A DNA stretch of 64,000 bases from an uncultured Bacteroidales bacterium. GTDB lineage: Bacteria > Bacteroidota > Bacteroidia > Bacteroidales > VadinHA17. The stretch spans positions 342,356-406,355 of the forward strand of contig CAWJAW010000006.1 of the NCBI GenBank assembly GCA_963840965.1, read 5' to 3'. Both the position numbers and the translations under genes were made by a program. The notes beneath the pieces were generated by a model, which had not been told where the DNA came from, ran no database searches, and worked only from the letters and a program-made list of their open reading frames with translations. How positions within the stretch are numbered: position 1 is the first letter of the stretch; every line of letters starts with the position of its first letter. Below, piece by piece: positions 1-25,369 of this stretch.

Positions 1-2388
1 TTCAATGGCGTTTTCCGGACAAACAATCCTGCAGTTGTCGCATTTGGTACAGAGCAACTGATCAATCTGGTGTTTTTCGTATGGCTTGAACGGAATTGCG
101 TTAACCGGACAATCCTGTGCACATTTCGTGCATCCTGTGCATTTGTCGGTAATTTCATATTTTACAAGATCCCTGCATCTTTTTGAAGGGCATATTCCCC
201 GGGTGTGGGCTTCATATTCTTCCCTGAAGTATTTCAGTCCTGTTATAACCGGGTTCGGGGCTGTCTTCCCGAGTCCGCAGAGGCTTCCATTCTGGACATC
301 ATAGCACAGTTTTTCAAGTTCATCCAGTTCCGCTAAGGTTGCTTTGCCCTGAGTCAGTCTGGTAAGTATTTCGAGCATCTGCTTGGTTCCCACCCGGCAG
401 TAAGTGCATTTCCCACACGACTGCTTATGGGTGAATTCAAGGAAATATCTTGCCATGTCGACCATACAGTCGGTGTCGTCCAGAACAACCATTCCGCCTG
501 AACCCATCATGGCGCCAAGCCGTGTAAGTTCCTCATAGTCAACAGGAGTATCTGCAAGACGTTCCGGAATGCATCCGCCTGAAGGTCCTCCGATCTGAAC
601 AGCCTTGAATGTCCTGCCTTCAATAACTCCATGTCCGATTTTTTCTACAATATCCCGGATTGTCGTGCCCATCGGAACCTCAATAAGTCCACCTCTGGCT
701 ACTTTGCCGGCGAGTGCAAACACTTTGGTTCCCTTGCTTTTTTCGGTTCCGATATCGCTGAAGGAACGGGAACCATTATTTATTATCCAGGGTACAAGTG
801 AAAGAGTCTCAACATTGTTTACCAGGGTAGGCCGTCCGTTGAATCCTTTGACGGCAGGATATGGAGGTCGCAAGTGAGGTGTTCCACGTTTTCCCTCAAG
901 CGAGGCTATCAGTGCCGTCTCTTCACCGCAGACAAAAGCCCCTGCACCTTCAAAAACCTCTATGTCAAATGATAAATCCGATCCCAGTATATTTTTTCCT
1001 ATAATTCCTTTTTCCCTGCATATTTTCAGTGCATTCCTCACTCTTGAAACAGCAAGAGGATATTCTGCCCTTATGTAGAAAATTCCACGGTCGGCTCCCG
1101 TTGCAAATCCGGCAATGAGCATTCCTTCAATTATTCTGAAGGAAAATGACTCAAGAATCATCCTGTCCATAAAAGCCCCCGGGTCACCTTCATCACCGTT
1201 GCAGACGACATATTTGGGTTTCTCCTTCATTGCTGATGAGATTTCCCACTTCTTTCCGGTTAGAAATCCTGCTCCTCCTCGTCCTCTCAGTCCGCTTTCG
1301 GTAATTACCTGAATCACCTCCTGCGGATTATTGGCCATGAGCACTGCTTTAAGGGCCCTGAATCCGTCAAGAAGTTCATATTCATCGTATGAATCAGGTC
1401 TCATAACACCTCCGTTCAGAGTGGCTATGTGGTACTGGGTACTAAGAAAATTATTCAGAGTCTGTTCCCTTGTGTCAGCCGGTATATTAACCGGACTGTA
1501 AACCATATCATCTGAAAGGAAGGAATCTGCAATATTATTTAATCTGAATCTCAGTTTCTTGTCTAAGGACCTTGGTTTAACATGTTTAAGGATTATCTCT
1601 TCAACCTGGTCCTTTTTGACATTTGTGTAACGGGAACTTCCTTTTCCGTCAGAAACAATTTCCAGGAGGGGAGTCTGGTTACAAACGCCAACACAGCCGA
1701 CAGGCTTTACTTTGATGTTAAGATCGTAGTACTCCCTTACATCGAGGAGCTTACCCAGTATGTCCCTGCTTCCGCCTGCAACACAGCAAGATCCCAGTCC
1801 AATCCTGACTTCTGCATCATATTCCTCTTTTACTGAATCTTTTTTCTGAGCACTCTGCTTTCCGACAGTGTGGAGAAAATCCGTGACAATCTCAATAACT
1901 TCGGTAGGTTTCACGTGCCCGTAAGTTTTTTCATCTATCTGAACAACAGGCGCAAGAGTGCAGCATCCCAGACATGCAACTTCCTCAATCGAAAAGAGAT
2001 TATCAGGGGAGCTGTTCCTCTCTTCTGTGATCTTGAGATCTCTTTTGAATGCTTCAGAAATCAGTTCCGATCCTTTTACGTGGCACGCGGTTCCGGAACA
2101 TATTTTTATTGTGTGTTTCCCTGACGGTATGTGTCTGAACTGTGAATAAAAAGTTGAAACTCCTGATATCTGTCCGGGCGTGATTTCAGTCACCCTGCAG
2201 ATGTGCTTAAGAGCTTCAGAAGGAATATAATTAAGCCTTTTCTGGACTTCCTGGAGTACCAGAATCACCTTTTCCTTTCCGGTACCTGTTTCACTCACAA
2301 CAGTGTCAACCACCGAGATAATTTCTTCAACGGAAAGTGCGCCGGAGTTGCAGTTGCAGGTTTCAGTATGTTTAGTTTCCTCTTTCAA
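1..2388 (-). CDS. Fused NuoE-like/NuoF-like NAD(P)H-oxidising iron-sulfur flavoprotein (HydB/HndC-type); 3' end runs off the window
   Basis: It is absent from the ORF track because it has no stop inside the window. My minus-strand translation from TTG at 2386-2388 to position 1 is stop-free (796 codons). Motifs seen: NuoE-type 2Fe-2S (CSGTACHVKG, CLGCCTLAP); a second thioredoxin-like 2Fe-2S module (GSCCVAGG, GCVGVCNQ); NuoF FMN/NADH motifs (GLRGRGGAGF, CNGDEGDPGAF); SCGKCTYCR; and two CxxCxxCxxxCP ferredoxin motifs (CTGCTKCAQDCP, CTKCDNCRIVCP). The start codon is uncertain (TTG at 2388 or 2403). Confidence 0.85.
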   Translation of the reverse strand, partial: MKEETKHTETCNCNSGALSVEEIISVVDTVVSETGTGKEKVILVLQEVQKRLNYIPSEALKHICRVTEITPGQISGVSTFYSQFRHIPSGKHTIKICSGTACHVKGSELISEAFKRDLKITEERNSSPDNLFSIEEVACLGCCTLAPVVQIDEKTYGHVKPTEVIEIVTDFLHTVGKQSAQKKDSVKEEYDAEVRIGLGSCCVAGGSRDILGKLLDVREYYDLNIKVKPVGCVGVCNQTPLLEIVSDGKGSSRYTNVKKDQVEEIILKHVKPRSLDKKLRFRLNNIADSFLSDDMVYSPVNIPADTREQTLNNFLSTQYHIATLNGGVMRPDSYDEYELLDGFRALKAVLMANNPQEVIQVITESGLRGRGGAGFLTGKKWEISSAMKEKPKYVVCNGDEGDPGAFMDRMILESFSFRIIEGMLIAGFATGADRGIFYIRAEYPLAVSRVRNALKICREKGIIGKNILGSDLSFDIEVFEGAGAFVCGEETALIASLEGKRGTPHLRPPYPAVKGFNGRPTLVNNVETLSLVPWIINNGSRSFSDIGTEKSKGTKVFALAGKVARGGLIEVPMGTTIRDIVEKIGHGVIEGRTFKAVQIGGPSGGCIPERLADTPVDYEELTRLGAMMGSGGMVVLDDTDCMVDMARYFLEFTHKQSCGKCTYCRVGTKQMLEILTRLTQGKATLAELDELEKLCYDVQNGSLCGLGKTAPNPVITGLKYFREEYEAHTRGICPSKRCRDLVKYEITDKCTGCTKCAQDCPVNAIPFKPYEKHQIDQLLCTKCDNCRIVCPENAIE

Positions 2389-4109
2389 TTTTGTGAAATG
2401 CAAAAAATATTGTTTCTACCACGGATATAAATATTCTTGTCGGAAAATGCCGGGGTACAGTCAGTTGGTTCCCCGATCGGGGATTCCGCAATTAGCTGGA
2501 ATTCCGGACCGGCATTGACTACGTGCATCAATCCGCTTCTGTCGAGACAGTAAACCTTGTCCCCGGCAATGATCGGCGAAGCATAGAACTGATCCATGAA
2601 GTAGTGAGTCCACAGAGTATCTCCCTTTATGGCATCATAGCAAGCCACATCGCCTACTCCGGTTGATATAAAAAGATATTGCTCATTGGCAACCGGGCTC
2701 GAAACATCCGATGTGAACATGTTGTCTTCCCAGACTATCGAAGGACCAGGTCCCGGTTTCAATGCTGCCAGTCGTGAGTAATCCGTAACTGCATAAACAT
2801 ATTTACTGTTTATCGCAAGCGAAGGGGCTACATCACCGGAAAGTACTTCGATTGCCCATAATTCCTTACCAGTGGCCGGATCGAATGCCGCTACTTCCGG
2901 GTTGCCGTTTATTAGTACCTGAGTTGTTCCGTTAAAGGTTGCCACCGATGGGGAAGCCCATGTTGACCTGCCTCTCCTGATGGTTTCCCATTTAAGGTCG
3001 CCTGTGGCCGTGTCAAAGCCCATCATAGATACTTTCTCATCCGAGTCGAACTGGACTATGAGAAGTTCATCGTGAAGTATTACAGAGCATGAATAACCGT
3101 AAATGTTTGCCGGAGTTCCGATATTCTTGCCCCATTTAAGCTTACCTTCAAGATCGAGGCAAACGAGGTTTCCGTTTGCAAAAATTGCGCAAACGGAATT
3201 TCCGTCTGTAGCTGCAGTAGGAGCTGCCAGCCCCGTATCATGATCAGTATCCGGGGGGGCATCCGGCTGTCCGGGAAGGCCGGAGGCGGGAGCCGTCCAG
3301 AGAAGAGCGCCGGTGTTTTTGTCGAGACAGTATACTTCGCAGTCATTGCCTTCAGCACCGGTAACATAGAGTCTGTCGCCCCATATCACAGGGGAACTCT
3401 TTCCGTTTTTCGGAACACTTGCTTTCCATTTGATGTTTGTTCCGGTTTCAGCATTCCATTCAAACGGATAATCCTCACCGCCCGCAATGCCTCTGCCGTC
3501 CTGACCCCTGAAAAAAGGAAAATTGACAGGATCGGGCGAGAAAGCCACTGCCGCGACGGATGCTGATGTCTCGTCTTTTTCCTTTTTCTTCTCCCTCTTT
3601 TCGGCTAAGGCTGTTTGTTTTCCGGACAGGTCAGGCAAATCATTTCGCAAAATGAATGAAGATATTATTGCGGCAACAGTCAGGACTGACACAGTACCTG
3701 CAAGGTATTTTGAATACCGCGCTTTATCGGAGACCTGATCGGTTTTTTCTCCGGGTACAGAAGGAAGATCTTTCTCATTCCCTGCTATGAGCCTTTGACA
3801 CAGAACAAATATAACAGCTCCTGCGATCAGCAGCCAGGAACCCGTTTCAACCTGTCGGCGCGATGCGAAATAGGCCTTCCTGGCCATCAGATCGAGCGCC
3901 CTTACCTGTTCCGCCTTAACTGCATTTTCATGATCCTTGTCAAATTCTTCCTTCACCGACACAATTACGGGATTGTCAAGAGGATCGAGAACTTTCATCT
4001 GGACAACACTCAAAAGCATGGTCAGTGCTACGATGAGGGTAAATATCCCAGCACCGGTGCTAATCCCTCTGAGTATCTTCAGTTCCTTTTCTTCAAGCTT
4101 TATCATCAC
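2385..4109 (-). CDS. Membrane-anchored PQQ-like (BamB-like) beta-propeller repeat protein
   Basis: 574-aa ORF. The N-terminal ~170 aa carry three hydrophobic helices. Repeated propeller blades follow, with xxTGxxxW signatures (LDKNTGALLWT, FDTATGDLKWE, FDPATGKELWA, YDAIKGDTLWT). The stop TGA overlaps the TTG of the next gene. Confidence 0.8.
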   Translation of the reverse strand: MMIKLEEKELKILRGISTGAGIFTLIVALTMLLSVVQMKVLDPLDNPVIVSVKEEFDKDHENAVKAEQVRALDLMARKAYFASRRQVETGSWLLIAGAVIFVLCQRLIAGNEKDLPSVPGEKTDQVSDKARYSKYLAGTVSVLTVAAIISSFILRNDLPDLSGKQTALAEKREKKKEKDETSASVAAVAFSPDPVNFPFFRGQDGRGIAGGEDYPFEWNAETGTNIKWKASVPKNGKSSPVIWGDRLYVTGAEGNDCEVYCLDKNTGALLWTAPASGLPGQPDAPPDTDHDTGLAAPTAATDGNSVCAIFANGNLVCLDLEGKLKWGKNIGTPANIYGYSCSVILHDELLIVQFDSDEKVSMMGFDTATGDLKWETIRRGRSTWASPSVATFNGTTQVLINGNPEVAAFDPATGKELWAIEVLSGDVAPSLAINSKYVYAVTDYSRLAALKPGPGPSIVWEDNMFTSDVSSPVANEQYLFISTGVGDVACYDAIKGDTLWTHYFMDQFYASPIIAGDKVYCLDRSGLMHVVNAGPEFQLIAESPIGEPTDCTPAFSDKNIYIRGRNNIFCISQN

Positions 4110-5376
4110 TAGTCTTATTTAATTGTACAGGGCAATACTGAAAACATTTTCCACAACTGTAGCATTTGCCCTTATGTGGAACATATCCTGTTCTTCTGGT
4201 GCGTGTTGACAAAGAAACAAGGCTGAGTCCGAATGATAATCCGAGAAATAATCCCATCCAGATGGAGCCCTTCCGGAACCTCTCATGGGTTTTTATTTCC
4301 TTTTCAAACAGTTCAGCTTCCGTTGTGCCAGCTTCCTTAAAACCCAGGGCAGCCAGCGAAACAGCCGGGATTCCACTCTCAGCTTCAGCCCTGATTTCCC
4401 TGGCCAGCCTGACATCACTGTTCAGTCCGGTGAAAACCGGTGAAAGGGTTCCGAAAATTATAGCACCGGCTGCTGCAAAAAAGGGAACAAGAATTATATA
4501 TGTAAGAAAACGTTTTCTCTCTTTTTCAGGGTCAACCACCGGGCGGGCAACATCCGAAGGAAGGATGGCGTCGTACGGGCAAACATCCTCACACAGCCTG
4601 CAATTAATGCATTCGGCAGGGGTAATTGTCAGATGCTTGTTTGAGAACCTTGAGAATATATTCAGGAGTACACCATAAGGACATAAGTATCTGCAATATG
4701 GCCTGTTGATAAAAATCCCTGCAATAAGCAGCAATCCTCCAAATATTACCATTGTATAGGGTGCATCGAGCCTGAAGATGCCTACAAAGGGATCGTAACG
4801 GCATATAAGGAACTGGCTTTCAGTTGCAGCCGAAAGAACTGATATTCCCAGATAAATGAAAGGCACAGATATCATTACTGACTCAACAACCCTGGGAAGT
4901 TTGACGGTTTTGAAACCAACAAGCTCCTGAATGGCGCCAAGAGGACATACCCCCGCACAGAATACCCTTCCAAATAAAAGTGCAAAGATCAGAGGTATCA
5001 TGAAGAACAGGAGTGCCGTCAGGGGAATTGAATATCCCTTGTTGAAAATGGCAAGGGCAACATTCTGAACCGAGCCGACTGAACATATGCATCCCTCCCT
5101 GAAAAATCCGAAATAGGCGAGAGAGAAAACCGAAAGCCAGAGCAGTCCCTGACGTGACCTGACTTTCAGCGCCAGCCATGCTGCCACCGAAAGAGCCCCG
5201 ATGAGCACTGCAAGATCGATATATTCCCAAATGGGAGCTCTGTCAGCAGGCATCTGATGCTCGGGATAGACATATCCGGATTCAAACTCCGGCCTTGGAA
5301 ATCTTTCCTGTGCAAAAACCACCGCATGCCACGCAAACATGAGGAACAACAGGATATATGGCAATTTCTTTTTCAC
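4093..5376 (-). CDS. NapH/MauN/NosH-like integral-membrane polyferredoxin
   Basis: 427-aa ORF with multiple TM helices. It has two CX3CP motifs typical of the NapH/NosR family (FCAGVCPLG, YCRYLCPYG) and two 4Fe-4S motifs (CINCRLCEDVCP, CYSCGKCFQYCP). Confidence 0.8.
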   Translation of the reverse strand: MKKKLPYILLFLMFAWHAVVFAQERFPRPEFESGYVYPEHQMPADRAPIWEYIDLAVLIGALSVAAWLALKVRSRQGLLWLSVFSLAYFGFFREGCICSVGSVQNVALAIFNKGYSIPLTALLFFMIPLIFALLFGRVFCAGVCPLGAIQELVGFKTVKLPRVVESVMISVPFIYLGISVLSAATESQFLICRYDPFVGIFRLDAPYTMVIFGGLLLIAGIFINRPYCRYLCPYGVLLNIFSRFSNKHLTITPAECINCRLCEDVCPYDAILPSDVARPVVDPEKERKRFLTYIILVPFFAAAGAIIFGTLSPVFTGLNSDVRLAREIRAEAESGIPAVSLAALGFKEAGTTEAELFEKEIKTHERFRKGSIWMGLFLGLSFGLSLVSLSTRTRRTGYVPHKGKCYSCGKCFQYCPVQLNKTSDDKA

Positions 5377-5382
5377 CTTCAG

Positions 5383-5946
5383 TTAAATCTTTTCTTTTGG
5401 AAGATACTGCACTTTGTCTGAAATTCTGGAAATAGCATCCGACGGACAACTTCTTGCAATAGCACATTCATTGCAGTTAACGCAAAGGTTCTGGTCTATC
5501 TGCAGATAAAGTGAACCGTTCCCAAAGTCCTTGCATCCCTTTACGCATTTTCCGCATCCGTCGCAAAGTGCTTCATCTATTGTGTATTCAAAATAAGGTT
5601 CTTCTACAAATTTCCTGGTTATGGCAGCGGTTGGGCAGAGCTGGTTCTCAGCTCCGGTGCTGATGGTTTTTGTACCCTGCCGCAGATAGCCTCCGCAAAG
5701 ATCGCAATAGCCGCACATCTGGTGATTATGCATGCATTTGACCGCCGACGGAGTAAGGACACAGTGAGTCTTGCACTGTCCACATGTGTTGCATTTGTAC
5801 GGATCGATCTGCCAGACCGTTCCCGCGGTAGTAATCCTGGTAGACAGAACGACAGGCAAACCGATTACCGGTACAGCAACCAGAACTTTGCCGGCCTTCC
5901 GGACAAAATCCCTCCGGGATTGATATTTATTAGTATCTTTATTCAT
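5383..5946 (-). CDS. Tat-signal periplasmic polyferredoxin (NapG/MauM-like)
   Basis: I chose the start at MNKDTNKYQSRRDFVRKAG (twin-arginine motif SRRDFV plus a hydrophobic stretch). Four Cys clusters are present: CNTCGQCKTHC, CGYCDLCGG, CDGCGKCVKGC, CVNCNECAIARSCP. The longer 234-aa ORF-track version overlaps the upstream small ORF out of frame. Confidence 0.75.
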   Translation of the reverse strand: MNKDTNKYQSRRDFVRKAGKVLVAVPVIGLPVVLSTRITTAGTVWQIDPYKCNTCGQCKTHCVLTPSAVKCMHNHQMCGYCDLCGGYLRQGTKTISTGAENQLCPTAAITRKFVEEPYFEYTIDEALCDGCGKCVKGCKDFGNGSLYLQIDQNLCVNCNECAIARSCPSDAISRISDKVQYLPKEKI

Positions 5947-6124
5947 CTTTTGAGTATTTACTGCAGTCATTGTCACCTTTGCAGAGCCCATTACCCGGAC
6001 AGGTAGAACAGTCTTTTCCGCTGACAGTCCGTGATCCCAGTGCCAGGGCAAGAAAAGCAAGAAAGGCAAGCAAGAGGGTTCTTGCAAGCTTCTTTAAAAA
6101 CTCCGGTCTTGTTATATTATTCAT
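5939..6124 (-). CDS. Small (61 aa) signal/anchor peptide with a C-terminal 4-Cys motif; unknown function
   Basis: The N-terminus TRPEFLKKLARTLLLAFLAFLALALG resembles a Tat-type S/T-R-R-x-F-L-K motif but has Pro in place of the second Arg. The tail is CSTCPGNGLCKGDNDC. It sits between two genes with a 4-nt (ATGA) overlap upstream and an 8-nt (ATGAATAA) overlap downstream. This geometry is the main support that it is translated. Confidence 0.5.
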   Translation of the reverse strand: MNNITRPEFLKKLARTLLLAFLAFLALALGSRTVSGKDCSTCPGNGLCKGDNDCSKYSKDE

Positions 6125-7035
6125 TTTCTTCTAAATACATAAAGTTTATTGTCAAAGCTGTTTGCAGCATATATAGTCTCTCCATCGGCCGAAGCCACAT
6201 CCAGCGGGATCGACTGGTTAAAATCATTGTTCACCGAAACGAATTCAACGAACATACCGTCACGGTCAAGTATTTTGATTCTGTTTATTCCCTTTTCAGC
6301 AGTAACGAATCCCTGGGGGATAACTGCAAAATGTGCCGGGTTGCAGCATCCGCAAAACGCATCGGGGGCTGTTCCCGGTTCTCCGAATTCCGTAGTCTTC
6401 CTGCCGTCAGTGGTCCAGGTCTCGATTCTCCTGTTACCTGTATTGGCTGCAAAAACAAGATTTCCCGACACTGCTGCATCAAAGTAAGCACTCGGAATGA
6501 TAAATTTTTCATCTCCCTGACCCATCATCCTGAGAACTTCACCTTCTCTATCAAGAACAAACATCCTCTTATTCCCTGCATCGGCAATAACAACATGCTC
6601 CGGACTGGCCGATAGTGATGTTATTATGCTGTTCCCCTCGTAAGGTCCCCACTCTGAAATCAGTTTACCTGAAGAGGATACAAGGTAAATTGTCTCCGTT
6701 GTTGAAGCGAATACCGTATCACCCGAAACAGCTAGGGCGGTTATCTTTCCTTCAGTTTCAATAGACCATAGTACGCCAAGATTCTGATCCAGGGCGGTAA
6801 CAAATGCATCTCCGCCAAGAAACACCATTCCCCTCTCAGAGACGGCTACCGAGGTTAGGGATCCTGCCGGCAGGCTATAAGTTTTTTCAATGATCCACTC
6901 AGCCTCATATTCCTCAGTTGTTGTTGCTTCCGGCTTCTCAGTTCCTCCTGAACCTCTTGCCGCATCATAGATCATGTAGGCCATGAAGGCCAAAATTATG
7001 ATCAGTGAAAATAATGCTGCAGGTTTCTTTCCCAT
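6121..7035 (-). CDS. Membrane-anchored NHL-repeat six-bladed beta-propeller protein
   Basis: 304-aa ORF with an N-terminal hydrophobic anchor (LFSLIIILAFMAYMIY). NHL-like blades: IADAGNKRMFVLDREGEV, AANTGNRRIETWTTDGRK, TAEKGINRIKILDRDGMF, AANSFDNKLYVF. It also carries an unusual FCGCCNPAHF motif. Confidence 0.8.
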   Translation of the reverse strand: MGKKPAALFSLIIILAFMAYMIYDAARGSGGTEKPEATTTEEYEAEWIIEKTYSLPAGSLTSVAVSERGMVFLGGDAFVTALDQNLGVLWSIETEGKITALAVSGDTVFASTTETIYLVSSSGKLISEWGPYEGNSIITSLSASPEHVVIADAGNKRMFVLDREGEVLRMMGQGDEKFIIPSAYFDAAVSGNLVFAANTGNRRIETWTTDGRKTTEFGEPGTAPDAFCGCCNPAHFAVIPQGFVTAEKGINRIKILDRDGMFVEFVSVNNDFNQSIPLDVASADGETIYAANSFDNKLYVFRRK

Positions 7036-7036
7036 A

Positions 7037-8497
7037 TTAACTTTCTTTCCCTATATTAAGACAGACCATATTTCTTGCATCCCTCATAATGAGGAAGTTA
7101 CCTGCTATGGCCATCGGCCCCCAGGCCTCGATTCCGTCGAGCAGATCGAATTGTGAAAGCAGGGTTGCCTGCGAGCCATCAATTCTGAAGATGAAAAGGT
7201 TTGCATCATCATCGAGCAGTATCAGTTTGTCATCCTTTACTATAAAAGGTCCGAGTCCGCGACCGAATCTCATGTCCTTTCCGCTGCCCCATACAAGGGT
7301 TCTCAGATCGGACTTATGGTATGAAACAAGCTGTTTCTTCAGAGGACCTGCATTCTCAGGCATTACCGTCCATACGTAATCACCTGTGATGATTGGTGTC
7401 TGCTGGTCGCTTGAAATACCTTCCATTGCCTTGTGTGTCTCTATCACGGCAACAGAGTATCCTGATCCGTCAAAGTCGATCCTGATTTTTCCTCCGCCTG
7501 CCCCATAGCTGCCGAATACTGCTATTTCACCATTGCCCAAATGCACGGGAGAGGCTGCTGTTGTCGCCGGATTCCATTCCTTTGTTTTCCACAGGACCCT
7601 TCCGACATCGTTCCCGTCAGCAGCAACGCCTACAACGCCTCCAACGGCATTGTAAACGTACATTTTTCTTCCATGAATCACCATTGGGATTATAGACCCA
7701 TGCGACATCATCAGGGAGTCGGGGTTCGGGGTGCGCCACAGTATCTCGCCGTCAGCGCAATTCACACCGATCATCAGGGCTTTACCGCCGGGAGCAAGTA
7801 CAGCAACTTCGTTATCAATAAGAGGACACTGGCCGGAATAGAAATCGGGTGTGATTTTTCCCTTTGAACTTCCCGGTACGCCAAATTCCTTTTCCATGTC
7901 GATGGTCCAGAAAAGTTCCCCTGAAACGGGATCGACACACATCACATGCGACCTGGGTCCGACTGTAACCACGTATTTGTCGTTAACCGCAGGTATGGTA
8001 CGGGAATAGCCGTGATTACGCTTCATGTCGACATAATACCATCTCCGCCACAACTCCGTACCTGACTTGAGTGAGAAACAGCGAAGCATGTCCGCTTTTC
8101 TTCTTTCGTCGTAATCTAATAGATAAACTCTTCCGTTTTTGACAGCCGGGCCGGCATAGCCTTCACCGAGAGTGACCTTCCAGACAACAGGCGGACCTGT
8201 AGTGTCCCACGATTCTGCCATTTCGAAGGTATCCCTGACAATGTTGTCAAAGTTGGGTCCCCTGAACCTTGGCCATTCTCCCGGTACCAATTCGTCGAAG
8301 ATGCCCAGCGTATCAAAAAACTCACCTACTATAATTTCCTCTGATCGTGGTTCAAGTTTCGGTCTGTTGTCCATGCCCGGAACCCTCATCGTGAGTTCGG
8401 CAGGATAGTGATAGTCAGCCAGCCACCAGATAAGTACAGCGGCAAATATCACCGCCGACACTCCTGTTAAAAGCCTGTTATTTTTCTTTAATGTCAT
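7037..8497 (-). CDS. Membrane-anchored PQQ-like beta-propeller repeat protein
   Basis: I chose the start at MTLKKNNRLLTGVSAVIFAAVLIWWL (TM anchor). Blade motifs: FSLKSGTELWR, VDPVSGELFWT, NCADGEILWR. The longer ORF-track N-terminus would overlap the upstream gene by about 100 nt. Confidence 0.8.
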   Translation of the reverse strand: MTLKKNNRLLTGVSAVIFAAVLIWWLADYHYPAELTMRVPGMDNRPKLEPRSEEIIVGEFFDTLGIFDELVPGEWPRFRGPNFDNIVRDTFEMAESWDTTGPPVVWKVTLGEGYAGPAVKNGRVYLLDYDERRKADMLRCFSLKSGTELWRRWYYVDMKRNHGYSRTIPAVNDKYVVTVGPRSHVMCVDPVSGELFWTIDMEKEFGVPGSSKGKITPDFYSGQCPLIDNEVAVLAPGGKALMIGVNCADGEILWRTPNPDSLMMSHGSIIPMVIHGRKMYVYNAVGGVVGVAADGNDVGRVLWKTKEWNPATTAASPVHLGNGEIAVFGSYGAGGGKIRIDFDGSGYSVAVIETHKAMEGISSDQQTPIITGDYVWTVMPENAGPLKKQLVSYHKSDLRTLVWGSGKDMRFGRGLGPFIVKDDKLILLDDDANLFIFRIDGSQATLLSQFDLLDGIEAWGPMAIAGNFLIMRDARNMVCLNIGKES

Positions 8498-9833
8498 ATG
8501 CAAAAAGTGCCTCACCGTGTCTGATATAAAGCACACCATTGTGGATGACAGGGTGTGCCCAGAATGGACCGGATCCGCCATTTATTTTAAAACTGCTTAC
8601 AAGATCAAACTTAGCAGGATCGGGTCTGAGCAATCCCACATTGCCACTACGTTCCTCGTAAATATACAGCATACCGTCGGCGGCTATAACCGACCCCTTG
8701 TTATTCCAGTGTTTGTCCCACATCTTTTCTCCGGTGTTCCAGTCGATGCAGCACCAGTTCCCGTTCCCATTGTTTATCCAGTTTGCTCCGTAGATAAAGC
8801 CATCAACCATGACAACACCTCCGTGGTGAACATCAAGTACATCATGTGTCCATACAGCTTTAGCACTTTTTCCATCATCGCCGATATCAATCATTAAGCC
8901 CCCGTGATCATAGCCTCCGGTCATATAGACCCTGTTCCCTGAGAAAAGGGGAGTGACACACAAGATCTGACCTGTATCGTCTATATCGGATTTCCCAAGA
9001 GCCTCCCTGTGGTTTATTTTCCAAAGGATTGTTCCGTCAGATACATTTACACCAAAAATGAAACGGGGTGTTATGTTAATCAGGATCCTGATACCGGCCT
9101 TCTCAATCAGAATAGGGGAAAGGTAGGATGCCGGATCATTAATGCTTTCGGACCTCCAGATCACGTCGCCGGAATTCTTGTCAAAAGCAATGGTGGTGGT
9201 CTGAGGACCTCCGGAGGTGTAATAAATTTTGTCACCATCAATAATGGGCGATTCTGCTATTCCCCAGGGTCCGTAGGTGCCTCCATTCTCCTCACTTGCT
9301 TTCCTCGACCAGATTATTTCCCCCGAAATACCGTTTATGCATGCAAGGTCTCCAAATCCGCTCGTTACATATATTCTGTCGCCATCAACAGCAGGGGTAC
9401 ACCTGGTTTCAGGATACGATTTTTCCCAGAATCTGCCGTATGGAGTTTTCCATTTTATTTTTCCTGTGGGATCAAGTGCAATAAGAACATCGTTTGGTTC
9501 TTCAAGACCGGTGATGTAAATAGTATTATTCCCGAAAGTAACCGAGGAGTGGCCCTTGGGAAGTTCCGTATTCGACCATATCAGGGCTGGTCCGTCTTCG
9601 GGCCATGACTTCATCAGCCCTGTTTCGGCTGAGATACCTGTTCTGTTTGCTTCCCTCCATCCGGTAACCTTGCCATCATCTATCTGCACCGTTGTATTTT
9701 CAGACCTGTTTGCGAATGTGACGTCATTTTTTGTTTTGGTGACACCGGGATCGGAAAAGAAAAGGTAAAAAATCCCATACCCTATGGCTCCGATTATGAT
9801 AAGAGAGAGCACTATGATCAATATACGCTTCAT
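8478..9833 (-). CDS. Membrane-anchored PQQ-like beta-propeller repeat protein
   Basis: 451-aa ORF with an N-terminal anchor (MKRILIIVLSLIIIGAIGYGIFYLFF). Blades: GISGEIIWS, KNSGDVIWR, VSDGTILWK, WNTGEKMWD. It is a paralogue of the 9865-11127 product. Confidence 0.8.
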   Translation of the reverse strand: MKRILIIVLSLIIIGAIGYGIFYLFFSDPGVTKTKNDVTFANRSENTTVQIDDGKVTGWREANRTGISAETGLMKSWPEDGPALIWSNTELPKGHSSVTFGNNTIYITGLEEPNDVLIALDPTGKIKWKTPYGRFWEKSYPETRCTPAVDGDRIYVTSGFGDLACINGISGEIIWSRKASEENGGTYGPWGIAESPIIDGDKIYYTSGGPQTTTIAFDKNSGDVIWRSESINDPASYLSPILIEKAGIRILINITPRFIFGVNVSDGTILWKINHREALGKSDIDDTGQILCVTPLFSGNRVYMTGGYDHGGLMIDIGDDGKSAKAVWTHDVLDVHHGGVVMVDGFIYGANWINNGNGNWCCIDWNTGEKMWDKHWNNKGSVIAADGMLYIYEERSGNVGLLRPDPAKFDLVSSFKINGGSGPFWAHPVIHNGVLYIRHGEALFAYDIKEK

Positions 9834-9864
9834 ATTTTTGAATTTTCAATTTATACAAAGATAA

Positions 9865-11127
9865 CTATCTCGCCTTTAAATTAAATACCCCAAGGTATTC
9901 TCCGTGCCTGATGAACAACCGGCCTTTGCTAATTACCGGATGAGACCAGTATGGACCTGTACCCTTTGTAATACGGAACTGGCTTACCACATCGAGCTTT
10001 TCCTTGCCGGGTTTCACCAGACCTACATTTCCGGTGCGTTCTTCATAAATATAAAGCATTCCGTCGGCGGAAATAACTGATCCCTTATTGTGCCAATCGT
10101 TTATCCAGAGTGTTTTTCCGGTATTCCAGTCAACGCAAATCCATTTTCCCATTGAATTGTTATCATGAGTTGAACTGAAAATAAGGTCGCCAAGAAGTAC
10201 AGCGCCTCCGACATGAGGAGTAAGATCAGTGTTTTTCCATACAACGGTGGGAGCGGATCCGTCAGGATTGATCTTCAGTTTCACGGCAACCTGAGAGTAA
10301 CCGTTTGCAACAAGAAGAAATCCGTCGCGGTAGATTGGGGTGTTAATATGATTTCTTCGACCGCCCTGCTGTGCATTCAGACCTTCATAATCAACTTTCC
10401 AGAGAAGTTTTCCATCGGCTGTATTTATGCCAAGGATGCTCTTTGTTGTGACTGTAACAAGTATTTTCTTGCCTCCTGATTCGAAAACGAGCGGGTTTAC
10501 ATACTGGGTATCCTCATTTACTGGAGTTGTTGTCCATACAACTTTCCCGTCAGAGGTGTTGAATGCAACTGCTGCAGCAGCATTGCCTCCGGGGGTTCCG
10601 ATTACCTTGTTGTCCACAACCACCGGTGACTCCGAAATGCCAAATCTGGGCGCCGAAGCGTTATATTTCTGAAAGTAATTTACTGACCATACTATTTTCC
10701 CGTCAGTTCCAATGCAGACCATGTCGCCTGAACCACTGACAAGATAGAGCCTGCCGTTGGAATAGGTAGCGGTGCTTCGTGTATCGGGATAGTTACTGTC
10801 GGAAGATTTTCCGTATCGTGTTGACCATTTTACCTTCCCATCCTGGGTAAAGGCCGTAAGGTAGTCATCATCGCCTTTCCGTCCGGTGATATAAACCACA
10901 TCACCGGTCACAGTTGCACTCGAATAACCGGTACCGGCTTCCGATGATTCCCAAAGCAGTGATAGTCCGGCAGAAGGCCAGTTTTTCAGCAGCGACGACT
11001 CGGAATAAATACCGGTTCGGCCGCTGCCCCGCCATTCATTTACAGACTGTGAGTTAACCTGTAAAACGAAAATAAAGGTCAATAGACCCTGGATCAGTAG
11101 AAATTTAGTTTTTGCTGACATAATCAA
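9865..11127 (-). CDS. Secreted PQQ-like beta-propeller repeat protein (first gene of operon)
   Basis: 420-aa ORF with a signal peptide (KFLLIQGLLTFIFVLQVNSQ). Blades: GTDGKIVWS, TSDGKVVWT, TADGKLLWK, WNTGKTLWI. The C-terminal ~80 aa are near-collinear with the 8478-9833 product. Confidence 0.8.
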   Translation of the reverse strand: MIMSAKTKFLLIQGLLTFIFVLQVNSQSVNEWRGSGRTGIYSESSLLKNWPSAGLSLLWESSEAGTGYSSATVTGDVVYITGRKGDDDYLTAFTQDGKVKWSTRYGKSSDSNYPDTRSTATYSNGRLYLVSGSGDMVCIGTDGKIVWSVNYFQKYNASAPRFGISESPVVVDNKVIGTPGGNAAAAVAFNTSDGKVVWTTTPVNEDTQYVNPLVFESGGKKILVTVTTKSILGINTADGKLLWKVDYEGLNAQQGGRRNHINTPIYRDGFLLVANGYSQVAVKLKINPDGSAPTVVWKNTDLTPHVGGAVLLGDLIFSSTHDNNSMGKWICVDWNTGKTLWINDWHNKGSVISADGMLYIYEERTGNVGLVKPGKEKLDVVSQFRITKGTGPYWSHPVISKGRLFIRHGEYLGVFNLKAR

Positions 11128-11276
11128 GTATTTAAGTGTTGTGCCCGCAATATATAAAAACTCCTACAACCAAGTATAAAATCATGCTTATCAGCACCTT
11201 CCATAAACCAATATTTAATGTTTTTTAACATCTTTTCAGCTTTCAATTTTGCAATCTCAACTCAAGAACACCAGCA

Positions 11277-12032
11277 TCATGTATTCCTGACTATCCATGC
11301 CTTGAACCCTGCTGCCCTGTTCTTGCTGACATAAATCCGCTCAGGGGTCTCAACATCCAGAGTAACAAGCAAACGGCTGTCGAACCAGATCGTCAGATTC
11401 CTGACACTGTTCCGGGCAACGATGAATTGTTTGTTCGCCCTGATGAATTCCTCCGGATTCAATGTCGACTCAATCTGATCAAGCGTCCCGGGATAGGAAT
11501 ACCAGCTGCCGTTCTTCAGGCAGACTCTGGTGTTCTTGTCGGTGGTATAGAAGCATGACACCTCGTCCATACCTACCGGCTGAAGCTTGTCCCGTACAGG
11601 AATCAGAATTTTGTCCCGGTGTGACTTCCAGGGTACAAGCTGGCTGAGTTGGTCCAGGTATTTGACAATATCCTGCCTGGTGAGCTTCCTGAATTTTTCC
11701 AGTGCCCGTTTTAGGTCATCCGTTTTTATCGGCTTAAGCAGATAATCAATACTGTTGACCCTGAACGCTTCGATGGCGTACTGATCAAAAGCAGTCGTGA
11801 AAATGACAGGAGTCTCAATGGTCAGCTTGTCAAAAATTGAAAAAGCAGATCCGTCGGACAGGTGGATATCCATCAGGATCAGATCGGGCATAGTATTGTT
11901 TTTTAACCACCTGACAGTCTGACTTATACTTTCAGTATAGCCGGCAACCTCAGTTTCAGGTTCAATTTCCTTCAGTATCTCTACAAGATTCTCGTAGGCC
12001 GCAGTTTCGTCTTCCACAATCAGTATTCTCAT
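11277..12032 (-). CDS. LytTR-family response regulator
   Basis: REC domain (MRILIVEDE, DLILMDIHLSDGSAF) plus a C-terminal LytTR-like DNA-binding domain (FIRANKQFIVARNSVRNL). Confidence 0.9.
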   Translation of the reverse strand: MRILIVEDETAAYENLVEILKEIEPETEVAGYTESISQTVRWLKNNTMPDLILMDIHLSDGSAFSIFDKLTIETPVIFTTAFDQYAIEAFRVNSIDYLLKPIKTDDLKRALEKFRKLTRQDIVKYLDQLSQLVPWKSHRDKILIPVRDKLQPVGMDEVSCFYTTDKNTRVCLKNGSWYSYPGTLDQIESTLNPEEFIRANKQFIVARNSVRNLTIWFDSRLLVTLDVETPERIYVSKNRAAGFKAWIVRNT

Positions 12033-12037
12033 AGCGA

Positions 12038-13078
12038 CTATTTAAGAGGAAGATAAACGGTAAAAGTTTTGCCATCATTATCGATACGTATCTTCCGGTT
12101 CAGCAGCAGCAAGAATCGGCTTTCAAGGTTTTTGAGTCCGGTGCCGTTGGTTTCAGAGGGCACAAGCTTCGGATAAATGGGATTCGAAACCGCAAGCTCA
12201 AAGACGTCATTGAGCCATATCCTTACCTCCATCTTATGCTCACTGTCGATTGTGTTGTGAAGGACAATATTCTCAAGAAGAGGAAGAAGTGAAAGGACAG
12301 GTATCTTCAGATCGCGTTTATCAAACGGGACTTCTGCAGTGAATACAAGTTTTCTGGCAAAGCGGACTTCCATCATATAGCTGAAAGCTTTCAGAAAATC
12401 GAGCTCATCGGCAAGATTAACCATTACTTTTCTGTCGCTCTGAAGGATATAACGAAAAACATCCGAAAGCTTATTTACATATTCAAGAGTGAGTTCCTCG
12501 TTCTTCTTGCGTATCAGCAAGGTGAGTCCGTTAAGTGAGTTGAAGAAGAAATGTGGATTGATCTGATTGGTAAGTGCATTATATTGGCTTTCGAGATTTT
12601 CGATTCGCAGTTGCTCAATCTCATGCTCTTTTCTTCTCTGTTCCGAAACCAGGAATGTAATGTGACCTACAAGCATTGAAAAAATCAGAATCACAAAGAA
12701 CTGAAACAGAAGCAGTCCTGTAAACCATTCCTGTTTGGGGTTAAGAACCAGTGAAAACCCTATATAGATCCCGTAAGAGACCAGAGTAATCACCAAGCTG
12801 TAAACCAAACGTTTACTGAAAAAAAGAGTTTTCAGTTTCCTCAGATTGACACTTATCAGCAACCATGTCAGACAAGCAAAATATAGGTATCTGAAGATGA
12901 AGAAAAAAAGATGCACAGCATGCTTTGACTCCCCTAGATGATCACGTTCCATGGAAAAGAACGTGATATTGGGATAGATGAAGAACACCGAGCATATAAG
13001 ACTTAACAAAAACAGCCTGAGAGGAGTAATTTTCTCCGGAAGATTCGTTTCGTCCAGCTTTTTAAAAAGAGTTTTCAT
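12038..13078 (-). CDS. LytS/YehU-type sensor histidine kinase
   Basis: Multi-TM N-terminus. His_kinase (PF06580-type) signature NPHFFFNSLNGL, followed by an ATPase region. It lies 5 nt upstream of the response regulator. Confidence 0.85.
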   Translation of the reverse strand: MKTLFKKLDETNLPEKITPLRLFLLSLICSVFFIYPNITFFSMERDHLGESKHAVHLFFFIFRYLYFACLTWLLISVNLRKLKTLFFSKRLVYSLVITLVSYGIYIGFSLVLNPKQEWFTGLLLFQFFVILIFSMLVGHITFLVSEQRRKEHEIEQLRIENLESQYNALTNQINPHFFFNSLNGLTLLIRKKNEELTLEYVNKLSDVFRYILQSDRKVMVNLADELDFLKAFSYMMEVRFARKLVFTAEVPFDKRDLKIPVLSLLPLLENIVLHNTIDSEHKMEVRIWLNDVFELAVSNPIYPKLVPSETNGTGLKNLESRFLLLLNRKIRIDNDGKTFTVYLPLK

Positions 13079-13258
13079 TAAGTGTGCTCCAGTAAGGTCA
13101 GAGTCCCATGGTTCAGTCCTTTGCCCATTATTAATTGATTATTCCGTAAAGTGTCAGATTCATACAAATTTCACCTTTAAATTCTCCTTTGTTCGCCTGT
13201 AAGGCGTAAAAAAGAAAAAAAGATTCCTGATCACGAATAGAGTGATGTATCATATGGA

Positions 13259-15079
13259 TTAATCAGGTTTATTTTTTACAGTTCCATGATATCTTAAGTA
13301 TTTCCGCAGGGCTTCAACATGGTAAATAATCGGGTACAGCTCTTCGTCATACCACAGCATGGCAAAATAAAGGCCTATTGGGGCAGCATTAATATCAATC
13401 CGGTCAAGAAGCCAGCTAATCCCCCTCGAAGACTCCTCAGGGTATACCTCTGCAAGAGCGCTTATTGCCAGTGATGTCTCTTCCACCGAGCCTTCAGTCC
13501 CTGACTTCCCGCCCCAGCTACCCTCGATGTTTTGCTGTTTCAGAAGAAATTCCTGCGCTTTCCTTACCATAATATCTATCCTGTTGATGTATTCTTTTCC
13601 AGGACGTTTAAATCGGAGTGAATCGCTAAGGTAGATACAAACCTTGGCAGTGCCGTACACAGGATTTGTTTTGTCATCTGTCATCTGGTTTCCAAACCAC
13701 AACGGCAGCCATGATCCGTCATCCGACTGGTGCTTTTCCAGGTAAACGGTTGCCTTTGAGATAGTCCTGTCAATAGTGGCAAGCAGCTTTTTGTCCATTC
13801 TGTCATGAAGGACCTCGGCCGATTTCAGCAAAGCAAGCAATGCATGTCCGGTCAGATCGGCGCAGCTGCGGTCAAATGGCAGTTTACCCCAACCCTTGCA
13901 GAAGGTAGGAAATCCTCCGTCGCTATTTTGGAGTTTTATAAGCCATCTGCAACCATTTTCAACGGCAGATATTTCAGTCTTTTTCCCTGAAAAGAGAAGC
14001 AGTAGGGAAATGATAGCCCCCGGAGTGTCGTCGGCGTCAGGAACAGAGCCTGAATAGTTTGTCCAGCCCCAGCCGCCAGGAGATGCTCCATTGAAAGGAT
14101 GGATGGTTTTATACTGAAGTTTCAGGAGGTGATCCCGGAGGATATCGATTTCCTTTTGTTTCAAAGCAATGTTTATATCTTTCCCCATGGCCTTGATTGA
14201 AAGGGTGGTCACCCAGGTCGACAGATCCGTGTCGATCGGCCATCCGCCGTCCTCCCGCTGCTGGTTCCGAAGGAAACCAAGTCCCTTACGAACTGTATCA
14301 TTTTCGGTCTCTCCGCATTGAATAAGACACATAGCCACAAAACCTGTCAGCGGAATGGCTTCAAGAAAGCCTCCGCTTTCGGGAAGGAGTCCGTCCAGTT
14401 TTCTGATAGCAGGCCCTATGAGTTTCTCCCGTATCTGTCTGATTCCGGGTATGCCTGAGCTTCTCTTGCGGTGATGGTATATTCCAACGCCGATGAGGGC
14501 AGGGAGTGCATAGCTGACAACCTTTAAATTCAGGAACCTGTATAAGGAATCAGGCAGCAGGGTAAGCTCAAAGGGCAGGCGCGGAATCTTATCGAGTGAA
14601 GATGCGGGTAAAACGCCGCAAAGTGTAAGCATCGATAATATAGGAACCGAAAAAGTGTAATCATTTCCGTAAATATCCAGGATTGAACTAACAACACCCG
14701 AAGAATCCATTTTGATCCCGTAACCCGCCAACCAGTTATCCATTGCAGCAATAACATGTTTTCCCGAATCTCCGTCCTGACAGAAGTGAACTGCAGAGTA
14801 GCAAAGAAGAGTGGTGCTCAGGTTGCTTACCGATTCCGGAGTATCGCCATAACCTCCGTCTGCATTTATATTGCTGCAAAGCCATGTAAAACCTTTCTCA
14901 ACTCTTCCTGGATCGGCAGGTTCTTCTGACAGCTTCAAGGCAACTATCGACACTGATGTCGATAGTGCGCTTGTCGATAAACGGCCTGTCCAGAATCCCT
15001 CAGAATTGCGTTTTGCTATAAGGAGAGCAGCAAGTTCGTTGTATCTTTGAGTAATTCTATCCATGTCGGTATTAATCAT
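13259..15079 (-). CDS. Squalene-hopene-cyclase-like class II terpene cyclase
   Basis: 606-aa ORF. It has at least four QW-type repeats (KGLGFLRNQQREDGGW, NGCRWLIKLQNSDGGF, KATVYLEKHQSDDGSW, KAQEFLLKQQNIEGSW). A DxDD-type acid motif, VPDADDTPG, is encoded at 14027-14038. Confidence 0.8.
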   Translation of the reverse strand: MINTDMDRITQRYNELAALLIAKRNSEGFWTGRLSTSALSTSVSIVALKLSEEPADPGRVEKGFTWLCSNINADGGYGDTPESVSNLSTTLLCYSAVHFCQDGDSGKHVIAAMDNWLAGYGIKMDSSGVVSSILDIYGNDYTFSVPILSMLTLCGVLPASSLDKIPRLPFELTLLPDSLYRFLNLKVVSYALPALIGVGIYHHRKRSSGIPGIRQIREKLIGPAIRKLDGLLPESGGFLEAIPLTGFVAMCLIQCGETENDTVRKGLGFLRNQQREDGGWPIDTDLSTWVTTLSIKAMGKDINIALKQKEIDILRDHLLKLQYKTIHPFNGASPGGWGWTNYSGSVPDADDTPGAIISLLLLFSGKKTEISAVENGCRWLIKLQNSDGGFPTFCKGWGKLPFDRSCADLTGHALLALLKSAEVLHDRMDKKLLATIDRTISKATVYLEKHQSDDGSWLPLWFGNQMTDDKTNPVYGTAKVCIYLSDSLRFKRPGKEYINRIDIMVRKAQEFLLKQQNIEGSWGGKSGTEGSVEETSLAISALAEVYPEESSRGISWLLDRIDINAAPIGLYFAMLWYDEELYPIIYHVEALRKYLRYHGTVKNKPD

Positions 15080-18694: not shown

Positions 18695-18709
18695 TGCTTC
18701 AGCTAAAAT

Positions 18710-19510: not shown

Positions 19511-19705
19511 CGTGCAAAAATAACAAAACCACCGGTCATATAATGCTTAATTACCCCTCACCAAGGCAAATCCTGAAATGAAAAAGAAAAACAGGGGTTT
19601 AAAACGAAAATGACGGAAGCATAATGATATTGTCAAGGGTTACCGGTTTAATTTGATAAATTATCTTATTTTTATTGCCGGTGAAACCCGAAAACTACAA
19701 AGGCG

Positions 19706-22258: not shown

Positions 22259-22259
22259 A

Positions 22260-23777: not shown

Positions 23778-23819
23778 AATATGAAACAAATTAAAGGCAC
23801 TTTTTGATATGATAACCAT

Positions 23820-25304: not shown

Positions 25305-25311
25305 GTAAAAA

Positions 25312-25369
25312 GTTGGCAGTTGGCAGTTGGCAGAATTTGGAGCCCTGTGCCCTGTGCCCTGTGCCCTGA
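25312..25369. repeat. Two adjacent 7-bp tandem arrays: (GTTGGCA)x3 then (GCCCTGT)x3-4
   Basis: Read directly. GTTGGCA repeats at 25312-25332. GCCCTGT/GCCCTGA repeats at 25342-25369 and decays further on. The arrays lie in the intergenic gap between two sulfatase genes. Confidence 0.9.

Follow-up and report, generated by a model that had tools for sequence, protein, structure and literature searches.

An operon of an uncultured Bacteroidales bacterium joining extracytoplasmic beta-propellers to NapG/NapH-like iron-sulfur proteins and a NuoEF-type flavoprotein: a candidate membrane-spanning redox system

We analysed a stretch of 64,000 nucleotides (nt) from an uncultured Bacteroidales bacterium of the VadinHA17 lineage (GenBank assembly GCA_963840965.1, contig CAWJAW010000006.1, positions 342,356 to 406,355 of the forward strand), hereafter called the window. 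At its left end lies an operon of nine genes, P1 to P9, encoding five beta-propeller proteins, a small Cys-rich peptide, two iron-sulfur (FeS) proteins and a flavoprotein with NuoE and NuoF domains (Table 1). Mapping of open reading frames (ORFs) located all nine genes on the minus strand, with consecutive neighbours overlapping or separated by no more than 31 nt, just as an earlier reading of this DNA, the first-pass annotation, had described.

Table 1. Features of the window (positions in the 64,000-nt stretch; aa, amino acids; Tat, twin-arginine translocation; TM, transmembrane)
Feature	Position	Strand	Description
P1	9865..11127	-	secreted beta-propeller of PQQ_2 type, 420 aa if read from TTG, with ATG at 11121 as the more probable start
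P2	8478..9833	-	PQQ_2 propeller with N-terminal anchor, 451 aa, paralogue of P1
P3	7037..8497	-	8-bladed propeller with N-terminal anchor, 486 aa
P4	6121..7035	-	6-bladed NHL propeller with N-terminal anchor, 304 aa
P5	5939..6124	-	61-aa peptide with four Cys
P6	5383..5946	-	Tat-signal ferredoxin, 187 aa, 16 conserved Cys, NapG-like design
P7	4093..5376	-	polytopic NapH/NosR-like polyferredoxin, 427 aa
P8	2385..4109	-	three-TM anchor and PQQ_2 propeller, 574 aa
P9	1..2388	-	fused NuoE, [2Fe-2S], NuoF (FMN, [4Fe-4S]) and C-terminal 2x[4Fe-4S]
LytTR response regulator	11277-12032	-	directly upstream of P1; Pfam families of the orthologous pair in L002
His_kinase-family sensor	12038-13078	-	upstream of the LytTR gene; Pfam families of the orthologous pair in L002
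Five-gene set	13259-19510	-	squalene-hopene-cyclase-like alpha/alpha-toroid protein (606 aa); 287-aa protein without Pfam match; DUF116 and polyprenyl synthase fusion (550 aa); radical SAM protein (392 aa); 4Fe-4S protein (266 aa)
Phosphotriesterase-family (PF02126) protein	19706-20764	+	N-terminal hydrophobic segment; between the terpenoid-like genes and the sulfatases
Sulfatase genes	20828-28832	+ (sulfatases)	four in tandem, then a radical SAM/SPASM protein with SEC-C motif
GH3 (glycoside hydrolase family 3) gene	30262-32265		

Gene spacings were computed from starts that agree with homologue lengths. Gaps of 31, 1 and 6 nt separate P1 from P2, P3 from P4 and P6 from P7, and the remaining neighbours overlap by 20 nt (P2/P3), 4 nt (P4/P5), 8 nt (P5/P6) and 17 nt (P7/P8), with P8 and P9 sharing TTGA, so that the TTG start of P9 lies across the stop codon of P8. 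P8 is predicted to be translationally coupled to both P7 and P9. The composition and order of the genes in the first-pass annotation stood, and three of its boundaries were revised: P3 most likely starts at 8497 rather than 8581, its homologues being 486-488 aa long at 100% coverage; P9 is not complete, about 11 of its codons lying beyond the edge of the window (796 aa visible versus 807 aa in homologues); and the operon does not end at position 1 but extends beyond the left edge of the window. The start of P6 was likewise corrected, to 5946.

The five extracytoplasmic propellers proposed initially were all recovered. Searches with Pfam and NCBIfam gave PQQ_2 matches for P1, P2, P3 and P8 at E values between 2e-17 and 3e-35 (6e-21 for P1, 6.5e-28 for P2 and 3e-35 for P8), and P4 was recognised as an NHL propeller by PDB sequence matches (E 8e-14) and by its fold. 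Among the Pfam matches that had been anticipated, those to PQQ_2 and Fer4_5 were obtained and that of P4 to NHL was not, the Pfam NHL model missing P4 and matching only some of its homologues. The N-terminus of P1 resembles a cleavable signal, judged by eye, and a hydropathy scan gave this protein no TM segment. The same scan predicted one N-terminal anchor, positively charged on its N side, in each of P2 (residues 4-22), P3 and P4, and three TM segments in P8, for which weak PDB sequence matches to BamB and tetrathionate hydrolase were also recorded. P1 and P2 differ in presence and copy number among genomes, P1 being found in only part of the related loci.

P3 is the most conserved of the propellers, on par with the FeS proteins: across 50 complete loci its median identity was 69.5%, as compared to 71.4% for P6, 67.6% for P7, 71.3% for P9, 52.6% for P4 and 59.4% for P8. 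Its AlphaFold2 model (predicted local distance difference test score, pLDDT, 81) is an 8-bladed propeller, with BamB and tetrathionate hydrolase as the top fold matches. Residues D128, R166, Q223, H266, T367 and R472 are invariant even in distant relatives with overall identity of 35-45%, and P3 is a candidate catalytic or binding subunit. The model of P4 (pLDDT 82.5) matched the NHL domains of TRIM2 and Thin with template modelling scores (TM-scores) of 0.70-0.77 and root-mean-square deviations of 3.2-3.7 Å, and only eukaryotic NHL domains were matched in the fold search with this protein. Its vicinal pair Cys230-Cys231, in the motif CCNP, is invariant; across phyla CCNP, E247, K248, R252, K254, D152, D186 and D279 are conserved at 90% or more, and E205 is kept as well. 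Furthermore, P3 and P4 frequently occur in other phyla as fusions in a single polypeptide.

Two assignments of the propellers were considered and rejected. Membership among the PQQ (pyrroloquinoline quinone)-dependent dehydrogenases was ruled out by scores of 29-44 bits with TIGR03075, whose cut-off is 480; with PF01011, P2 scored 20.7 bits, under the cut-off of 26.7, and P8 scored 30.6 bits, which is over it but without an individual matched stretch. Membership in BamB was ruled out by scores of 25-74 bits against 285 for TIGR03300, by the presence of TM anchors or signals of the signal peptidase I type with no lipobox, and by the lack of genes for the beta-barrel assembly machinery (BAM) nearby.

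The pair P6 and P7 had been compared with NapG and NapH, and this comparison held for the architecture and failed for formal membership. P6 carries the twin-arginine signal SRRDFVRK, Fer4 family matches and 16 Cys, sufficient for four [4Fe-4S] motifs; the RR and these 16 Cys are retained without exception in 75 homologues from Bacteroidales and 58 distant ones. P7 matched PF12801 (Fer4_5) twice (E 4e-16) and possesses seven hydrophobic segments in the hydropathy scan, two CX3CP motifs and two CX2CX2CX3CP motifs, the latter about 140 residues apart with two TM helices in between. The alignments show no variation at the CX3CP pairs C140/C144 and C228/C232, both of which precede a P, and all 15 Cys of P7 are kept across phyla; C96, C98 and C192, also invariant, fall in loops that a NapH-based topology would place in the periplasm. 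Scores remained far below the curated cut-offs: 18.7 bits versus 178.85 of TIGR00397 (NapG/MauM) for P6, and, for P7, 51.7 versus 213 (TIGR02163), 48.9 versus 234 (NapH, NF007013) and 48.8 versus 1000 (NosR, NF046105). Family membership in NapG, NapH or NosR was ruled out on these grounds, and we therefore describe P6 and P7 as like those proteins and not as members.

The 61-aa Cys-rich peptide P5 proved to be a real gene, as had been supposed: it was found in 66 of 72 related Bacteroidales loci with C39, C42, C48 and C54 invariant. It consists of a degenerate Tat-like N-region, RxxF(L/I)K, one hydrophobic helix and a C-terminal C-x2-C-x5-C-x5-C knot, for which comparison with the PDB returned no solved relative. 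Distant versions have a true SRR(E/D)(L/F) motif and the spacing C-x5-C-x2-C-x5-C, versions from Bacteroidales a single Arg. No protein of the operon contains a CxxCH (haem c) motif. Moreover, no NapA, NosZ, MauAB, reductive dehalogenase or N-terminal FMN-binding domain is present either in the window or among some 160 related loci, and the initial observation that molybdopterin, haem c and copper motifs are missing applies to the window and the related loci alike. Taken by their motifs, the FeS proteins would suffice for a continuous path on both sides of the membrane, with P6, the propellers and probably P5 predicted as periplasmic from their export signals.

On the cytoplasmic side, P9 matched PF01257 (E 1e-46), PF01512 (E 1e-42) and PF10589 (E 2e-32). 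Its residues 205-281 match a 2Fe-2S ferredoxin and align with residues 2-78 of StnB, and residues 748-800 match Fer4_21 and Fer4_7, corresponding to the C-terminal 2x[4Fe-4S]. The closest solved relatives are StnB (8oh5_B, E 3e-203) and NfnB (9n5u_B and 9bov_B), followed by HydB of bifurcating hydrogenases; the NuoF part is about 60% identical to StnB, and NuoF and Nqo1 of complex I, which are without the terminal domains, score far lower. An N-terminal [2Fe-2S] and a C-terminal 2x[4Fe-4S] domain distinguish BfuB from non-bifurcating NuoF homologues (PMC9304861). P9 holds both of these extra cluster domains in addition to the BfuC NuoE-type [2Fe-2S], the FMN/NADH site and an N3-type [4Fe-4S], and is by this domain content a predicted BfuC-BfuB fusion of the Stn/Nfn type, on account of which ferredoxin probably serves as a co-substrate.

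The region to the left of the window was inferred from proxy loci, namely L003 and L005, whose NapH-like proteins are about 95% identical to P7, L001 (2.28 Mb) and L002 (264 kb). A catalytic subunit of the HydA or FdhA type had been proposed for a search there. The proxies have neither; the gene following P9 is D1, of 355 aa, with Fer2_4 [2Fe-2S], GltD-type Fer4_20 and Nqo3-type ferredoxin domains. Domain searches of the relatives' loci found no H-cluster, molybdopterin or NAD(P)H/FAD domain in D1, and a hydrogenase or formate dehydrogenase continuing from NuoEF was ruled out by this FeS-only gene. D1 aligns with the first ~170 residues of NfnA/StnA and also matches the N-terminal FeS part of HydA and HoxU. 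A Sedimentisphaerales-type D1 of 520 aa (L132, 18732-20294) keeps a short Pyr_redox_2/NAD_binding_8 Rossmann segment and looks intermediate between NfnA/StnA and an FeS-only wire. From the Bfu domains of P9 and the FeS-only D1, the head of the system would be a module derived from Stn/Nfn, from which the domain for the third substrate was removed.

After D1, loci L001 and L002 continue with a secreted PQQ_2 propeller, D2b, which is the sixth propeller of the cluster, a glycosyltransferase of family 4 (GT4) with weak matches to exopolysaccharide and glycolipid transferases, a LolD/MacB-like ATP-binding cassette (ABC) ATPase and an FtsX-type permease, duplicated and of about 1100 aa. In L001 overlaps of 4 to 32 nt link the genes from P8 to FtsX. 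The ABC ATPase was present in 62/62 Bacteroidales loci with enough flanking sequence. In several loci of the distant set described below (L093, L094, L132, L153 and L157) the D2b-GT4-ABC-FtsX block is located upstream of P3 and not downstream of D1, i.e. it was relocated and yet retained, thus the association survives rearrangement. In L001 alone a single ORF of 839 aa (16424-18943) combines the secreted propeller, a hydrophobic segment and GT4, which may reflect a lost stop codon or an assembly error; being confined to this locus, the fusion was not used as evidence.

Conservation was assessed in two sets of loci. The Bacteroidales set comprised the best 80 of at least 546 GTDB species genomes carrying relatives of P7, with synteny determined by tblastn relative to P7 and only loci with enough flank counted. 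The distant set comprised 80 loci of at least 578 confirmed metagenome stretches of the Joint Genome Institute (JGI), for which an alignment of distant P3-P4 proteins (A5) was the bait. All of the best 80 loci were from uncultured Bacteroidales or Bacteroidota of digesters, fens, soils and sediments, and the homologues of P7, which number in the thousands at 68-95% identity, are labelled simply as "4Fe-4S binding protein", "ferredoxin" or "NosR/NirI family". The first-pass proposal that the redox genes and the propellers form one system was borne out by synteny in the Bacteroidales set, where P6 was found in 73/73 loci, P8 in 73/74, P3 in 65/66 and P4 in 66/70, along with P9 in 58/69 and D1 in 53/68. 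The distant set, with GC contents from 35% to 72%, has the same genes at about 40-55% identity (P6 54/57, P7 42/45, P8 30/34, P9 21/25 and D1 20/24). The gene order is kept in over 150 independent loci, and a fortuitous arrangement can be dismissed.

A profile of P3 retrieved 301 clusters (50% identity) at E below 1e-30, several of them representing P3 joined to an NHL domain. According to source names, carriers include Sedimentisphaerales, Phycisphaerae/Planctomycetota, Gemmatimonadota, Armatimonadota, Mariniphaga and Bacteroidales, and the cluster occurs in anaerobes of at least four phyla. Clustering of all remaining ORFs across the loci revealed, as further conserved families, the FtsX permease and the small peptide only, with no conserved cytochrome, ApbE, FMN_bind, porin, Mo or Cu enzyme among them. 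Ten of the Bacteroidales loci without P9 miss P9 and D1 jointly and run directly from P8 to D2b-GT-ABC, and their absence from some loci points to the NADH head as an optional module. A further P9-less locus, L061 (CP070687.1), from an outlier Bacteroidales genome, lacks most of the cluster and keeps P6-P7 alone. At L061 (9429-13403) the gene after P6-P7 encodes a protein of 722 aa with a Peptidase_S74 (endosialidase chaperone) domain, and there are no propellers.

The first-pass annotation knew of no described system of this composition, and our full-text search of the open-access literature likewise found no description of this gene combination. The cluster borrows from three known kinds of systems: NapGH/NosGH/MauMN, the NapH-like extracytosolic systems and the Bfu family. 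With NapGH/NosGH/MauMN it shares a Tat-exported 16-Cys ferredoxin beside a PF12801 protein with two CX3CP and two 4Fe-4S motifs, and the same presumed role, the delivery of membrane or cytoplasmic electrons to a periplasmic enzyme. P7 differs, however, in having an RFPxPxF segment at its N-terminus, placed in the periplasm, as well as three additional invariant Cys and an insert of two helices between the 4Fe-4S motifs; the partners NapA, NosZ or MauAB are missing here, and a cytoplasmic NADH flavoprotein is attached. NapH-like modules are known to be combined, in a modular manner, with reductases and oxidases outside the cytosol, among them the propeller enzymes ExaA and NirS (PMC8238504, Meheust et al. 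2021). The NapH-like extracytosolic systems in that work, most of them uncharacterised, always have flavinylated FMN domains, whereas the present cluster has neither FMN_bind nor ApbE, a Tat ferredoxin and a four-Cys peptide replacing the flavinylated domain, and its propellers are neither quinoproteins nor cd1 reductases.

In the Bfu family, P9 shares the BfuC and BfuB domain set with Stn/NfnABC (PDB 8oh5, 9n5u, 9bov) and D1 aligns with the FeS part of StnA/NfnA. Here, by contrast, BfuC and BfuB are fused, and all that remains of BfuA is an FeS wire, the NADPH/FAD, H-cluster and pterin domains being missing. In this family BfuA "feeds electrons from a third substrate", and for 17-18 BfuB clades no partner has been assigned (PMC9304861). 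The third-substrate side of the present cluster appears to be a membrane and periplasmic module, a kind of partner not listed in that work. Two further comparisons concern the propellers. UetH/UetI and Gmet_0556 of extracellular electron transfer (EET) clusters are likewise NHL propellers encoded with periplasmic electron carriers, but their systems rest on multihaem cytochromes and porins, neither of which is present here, and P4 has the invariant CCNP. Tetrathionate hydrolase (PDB 6l8a, 7cqy) and BamB are 8-bladed, PQQ_2-type and cofactor-less propellers like P3, the likeness being one of fold, and P3 differs from them by a membrane anchor in place of a lipobox and by the lack of BAM gene context.

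Starting from the gene content, cofactor motifs, topology signals, co-inheritance across phyla and gene fusions observed at these loci, we consider the chances about even that the cluster encodes one membrane-spanning redox complex in four layers, with electrons ending at a periplasmic propeller module. From this evidence we infer the formation of a complex, an outward flow of electrons, a catalytic role of P3/P4 and propellers as terminal partners. In the head, P9 would oxidise NADH at FMN and probably exchange electrons with ferredoxin via its C-terminal 2x[4Fe-4S]; D1, as a BfuA-like FeS wire that lost the NADPH/FAD and formate-dehydrogenase-like parts, would pass electrons from P9 to P7. 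In the membrane, P7 would receive them at its cytoplasmic CX3CP and 4Fe-4S sites, with the three-helix anchor of P8 probably packed against it; in loci without the Bfu head P7 may instead draw on quinol, as NapH does. Tat-exported P6, probably together with P5, would then serve as the periplasmic wire to a terminal module of propellers anchored in the inner membrane. Its core would be P3 and P4, and a periplasmic acceptor might be bound and reduced there by the invariant vicinal Cys pair of P4 and a site of Arg, His, Asp and Gln in P3. P1, P2, P8 and the propeller downstream would be accessory. As a net result, fermentative anaerobes could dispose of electrons from NADH and ferredoxin outside the cytoplasm. 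With an acceptor of high potential, the Bfu head could, speculatively, drive the reduction of ferredoxin by NADH (bifurcation), and a dispensable head of the Bfu type suggests, equally speculatively, an acceptor potential above that of menaquinol. The first-pass annotation had proposed an NAD(P)H- or quinol-linked chain without a recognisable reductase, terminating at the propellers; the chain as such is supported by synteny, and the electron direction and the propellers as terminal partners are putative.

Several observations weigh against such a complex. No cofactor or known active site could be assigned to any propeller by comparison of motifs and folds, and the match of P3 to BamB and tetrathionate hydrolase is at 13-16% identity and TM-scores of 0.5-0.7. 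In some P3-P4 fusions (P0382, P0388) a hydrophobic helix persists between the domains, with the consequence that the two would face opposite sides of the membrane. P9 is missing from 11/69 Bacteroidales loci. Propeller genes elsewhere without redox genes, which the first-pass annotation had named as a contrary outcome, were seen almost never, the one exception being L119, with P3-P4 and the propeller-GT-ABC block alone. The model leaves GT4 and ABC/FtsX without a role. It should be added that, to our knowledge, the crossing of the membrane by electrons in NapH-type proteins is not established.

Alternatively, the propellers could be non-catalytic scaffolds or adhesins, comparable to BamB or to the NHL proteins of EET clusters. 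The electrons of the FeS chain would then go to the menaquinone pool, which would make the system a Bfu-driven NADH/ferredoxin:quinone oxidoreductase, to soluble enzymes of the periplasm whose genes lie elsewhere, or to a solid or humic acceptor that the propellers hold outside the cell. In line with this, BamB tops the fold matches of P3, cofactor motifs are missing from the propellers, P1 and P2 vary in copy number, a structural role is ascribed to the NHL proteins in the Uet and Geobacter EET clusters, and NapH is a quinol-interacting protein (PMC8238504). We nevertheless regard this as unlikely: P3 is conserved like the FeS subunits, and polar or Cys residues of P3 and P4 are invariant across phyla, which is unusual for pure scaffolds, a purely quinone-directed enzyme needs no Tat-exported four-cluster ferredoxin, and the cluster is without a conserved gene for an outer-membrane conduit. 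A role in envelope biogenesis or modification seems improbable. In this reading a glycoconjugate would be synthesised and exported by GT4 and ABC-FtsX and handled in the periplasm by the propellers, and the FeS chain would provide reductant for a modification step there. In L001 overlaps couple the translation of the secreted propeller, GT4, ABC ATPase and FtsX genes to that of the redox genes, the ABC gene is present in every countable locus, the block stays with the cluster under changed gene order, L119 has P3-P4 with this block alone, and GT4 weakly matches transferases for exopolysaccharides and glycolipids, all of which would agree with such a role. However, neither a flippase, a polymerase nor other polysaccharide genes are conserved in the cluster, and the propeller-GT fusion is unique to L001 and perhaps an artefact of assembly. 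Furthermore, we know of no precedent for an NADH/ferredoxin-Bfu head that feeds envelope glycan chemistry.

The direction of flow could also be the opposite, with propellers oxidising a periplasmic donor and the FeS chain and Bfu head reducing NAD+ and ferredoxin. Bfu enzymes are reversible (PMC9304861), and NapH-like modules serve oxidases as well, e.g. ExaA-type propeller dehydrogenases. This reading, which we hold to be distinctly improbable, would require a donor near -400 mV, and no cofactor to activate one is visible, the quinoprotein signature being lacking as judged by the TIGR03075 scores. Moreover, Bacteroidales and Phycisphaerae/Sedimentisphaerales of digesters and sediments, the groups given as carriers by the source names, are mostly fermenters and need sinks rather than sources of electrons. 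Highly improbable, in our judgement, is a chance juxtaposition, in which NuoEF-D1 is an independent cytoplasmic enzyme like Stn/Nfn and the propellers belong to an unrelated operon. The lack of NuoEF-D1 in 11 Bacteroidales loci, the closeness of the NuoF part of P9 to StnB and the Rossmann-domain remnant in D1 of L132 would fit with it; against it, P9 overlaps both of its neighbouring genes at the start and stop codons, the adjacency holds in at least four phyla and through rearrangements, and D1 is without the NADPH/FAD domains that a transhydrogenase needs.

Returning to the membrane-spanning complex with outward electron flow, its more specific form would be a new respiratory-like complex, with a Bfu head placed on a NapH-type conduit and P3 and P4 as a cofactor-poor terminal reductase acting through an FeS-fed vicinal Cys-Cys, without haem, molybdopterin, Cu or covalent flavin; we put this forward tentatively, as possible and not as probable. 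For the acceptor, a sulfane-sulfur, polythionate or disulfide species is our leading guess, and a rather unlikely one in absolute terms. It is weakly favoured because tetrathionate hydrolase is the sole enzymatic structural relative, because thiol motifs occur in the periplasmic parts (the CC of P4 and four Cys of P5), and because P3 has mostly basic or polar invariant residues, which would fit an anionic ligand.

The cluster is common, with the NapH-like relative in at least 546 GTDB species genomes and at least 578 metagenome stretches matching A5, and some of the carriers are dominant anaerobes that degrade polymers in digesters, peat, soils and sediments. If it is indeed an electron outlet for NADH and ferredoxin, these organisms would have an unrecognised route of redox balancing, possibly with energy conservation, and an orphan Bfu lineage would gain its "third substrate" side. 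Beta-propeller and NHL proteins, now annotated as "BamB" or "hypothetical", would acquire new chemistry. If the more specific form with a cofactor-poor terminal reductase applies, fermentative members of Bacteroidota, Planctomycetota and other phyla could couple the oxidation of NADH to the reduction of ferredoxin via a periplasmic acceptor, possibly a sulfur or disulfide species.

Upstream of P1, the LytTR/His_kinase pair is a possible regulator of the operon; such a pair was found beside or within the cluster in L002, L003, L006, L010, L041, L047 and L057 and is missing from most loci. No Rfam match at E ≤ 1 was obtained in window positions 1-20000, where a riboswitch or other RNA was sought upstream, and a scan of the region for promoters and terminators gave results at chance level, the sigma-70 model being uninformative for Bacteroidota. 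The five-gene set that follows might constitute a terpenoid pathway, as its domains suggest. Its cyclase-like gene is about 2 kb upstream of the operon in the window, and since the set adjoins the operon in the four closest relatives only, it was not counted in the system. In one distant protein, P0364, a P3-type propeller is fused to a toroid resembling squalene-hopene cyclase. Further along, the radical SAM/SPASM protein with the SEC-C motif, encoded after the tandem sulfatases, looks like an anaerobic sulfatase-maturating enzyme. Two sulfatase genes are also located just upstream of the cluster copy in L068, and by such gene content the carriers look like degraders of sulfated glycans.

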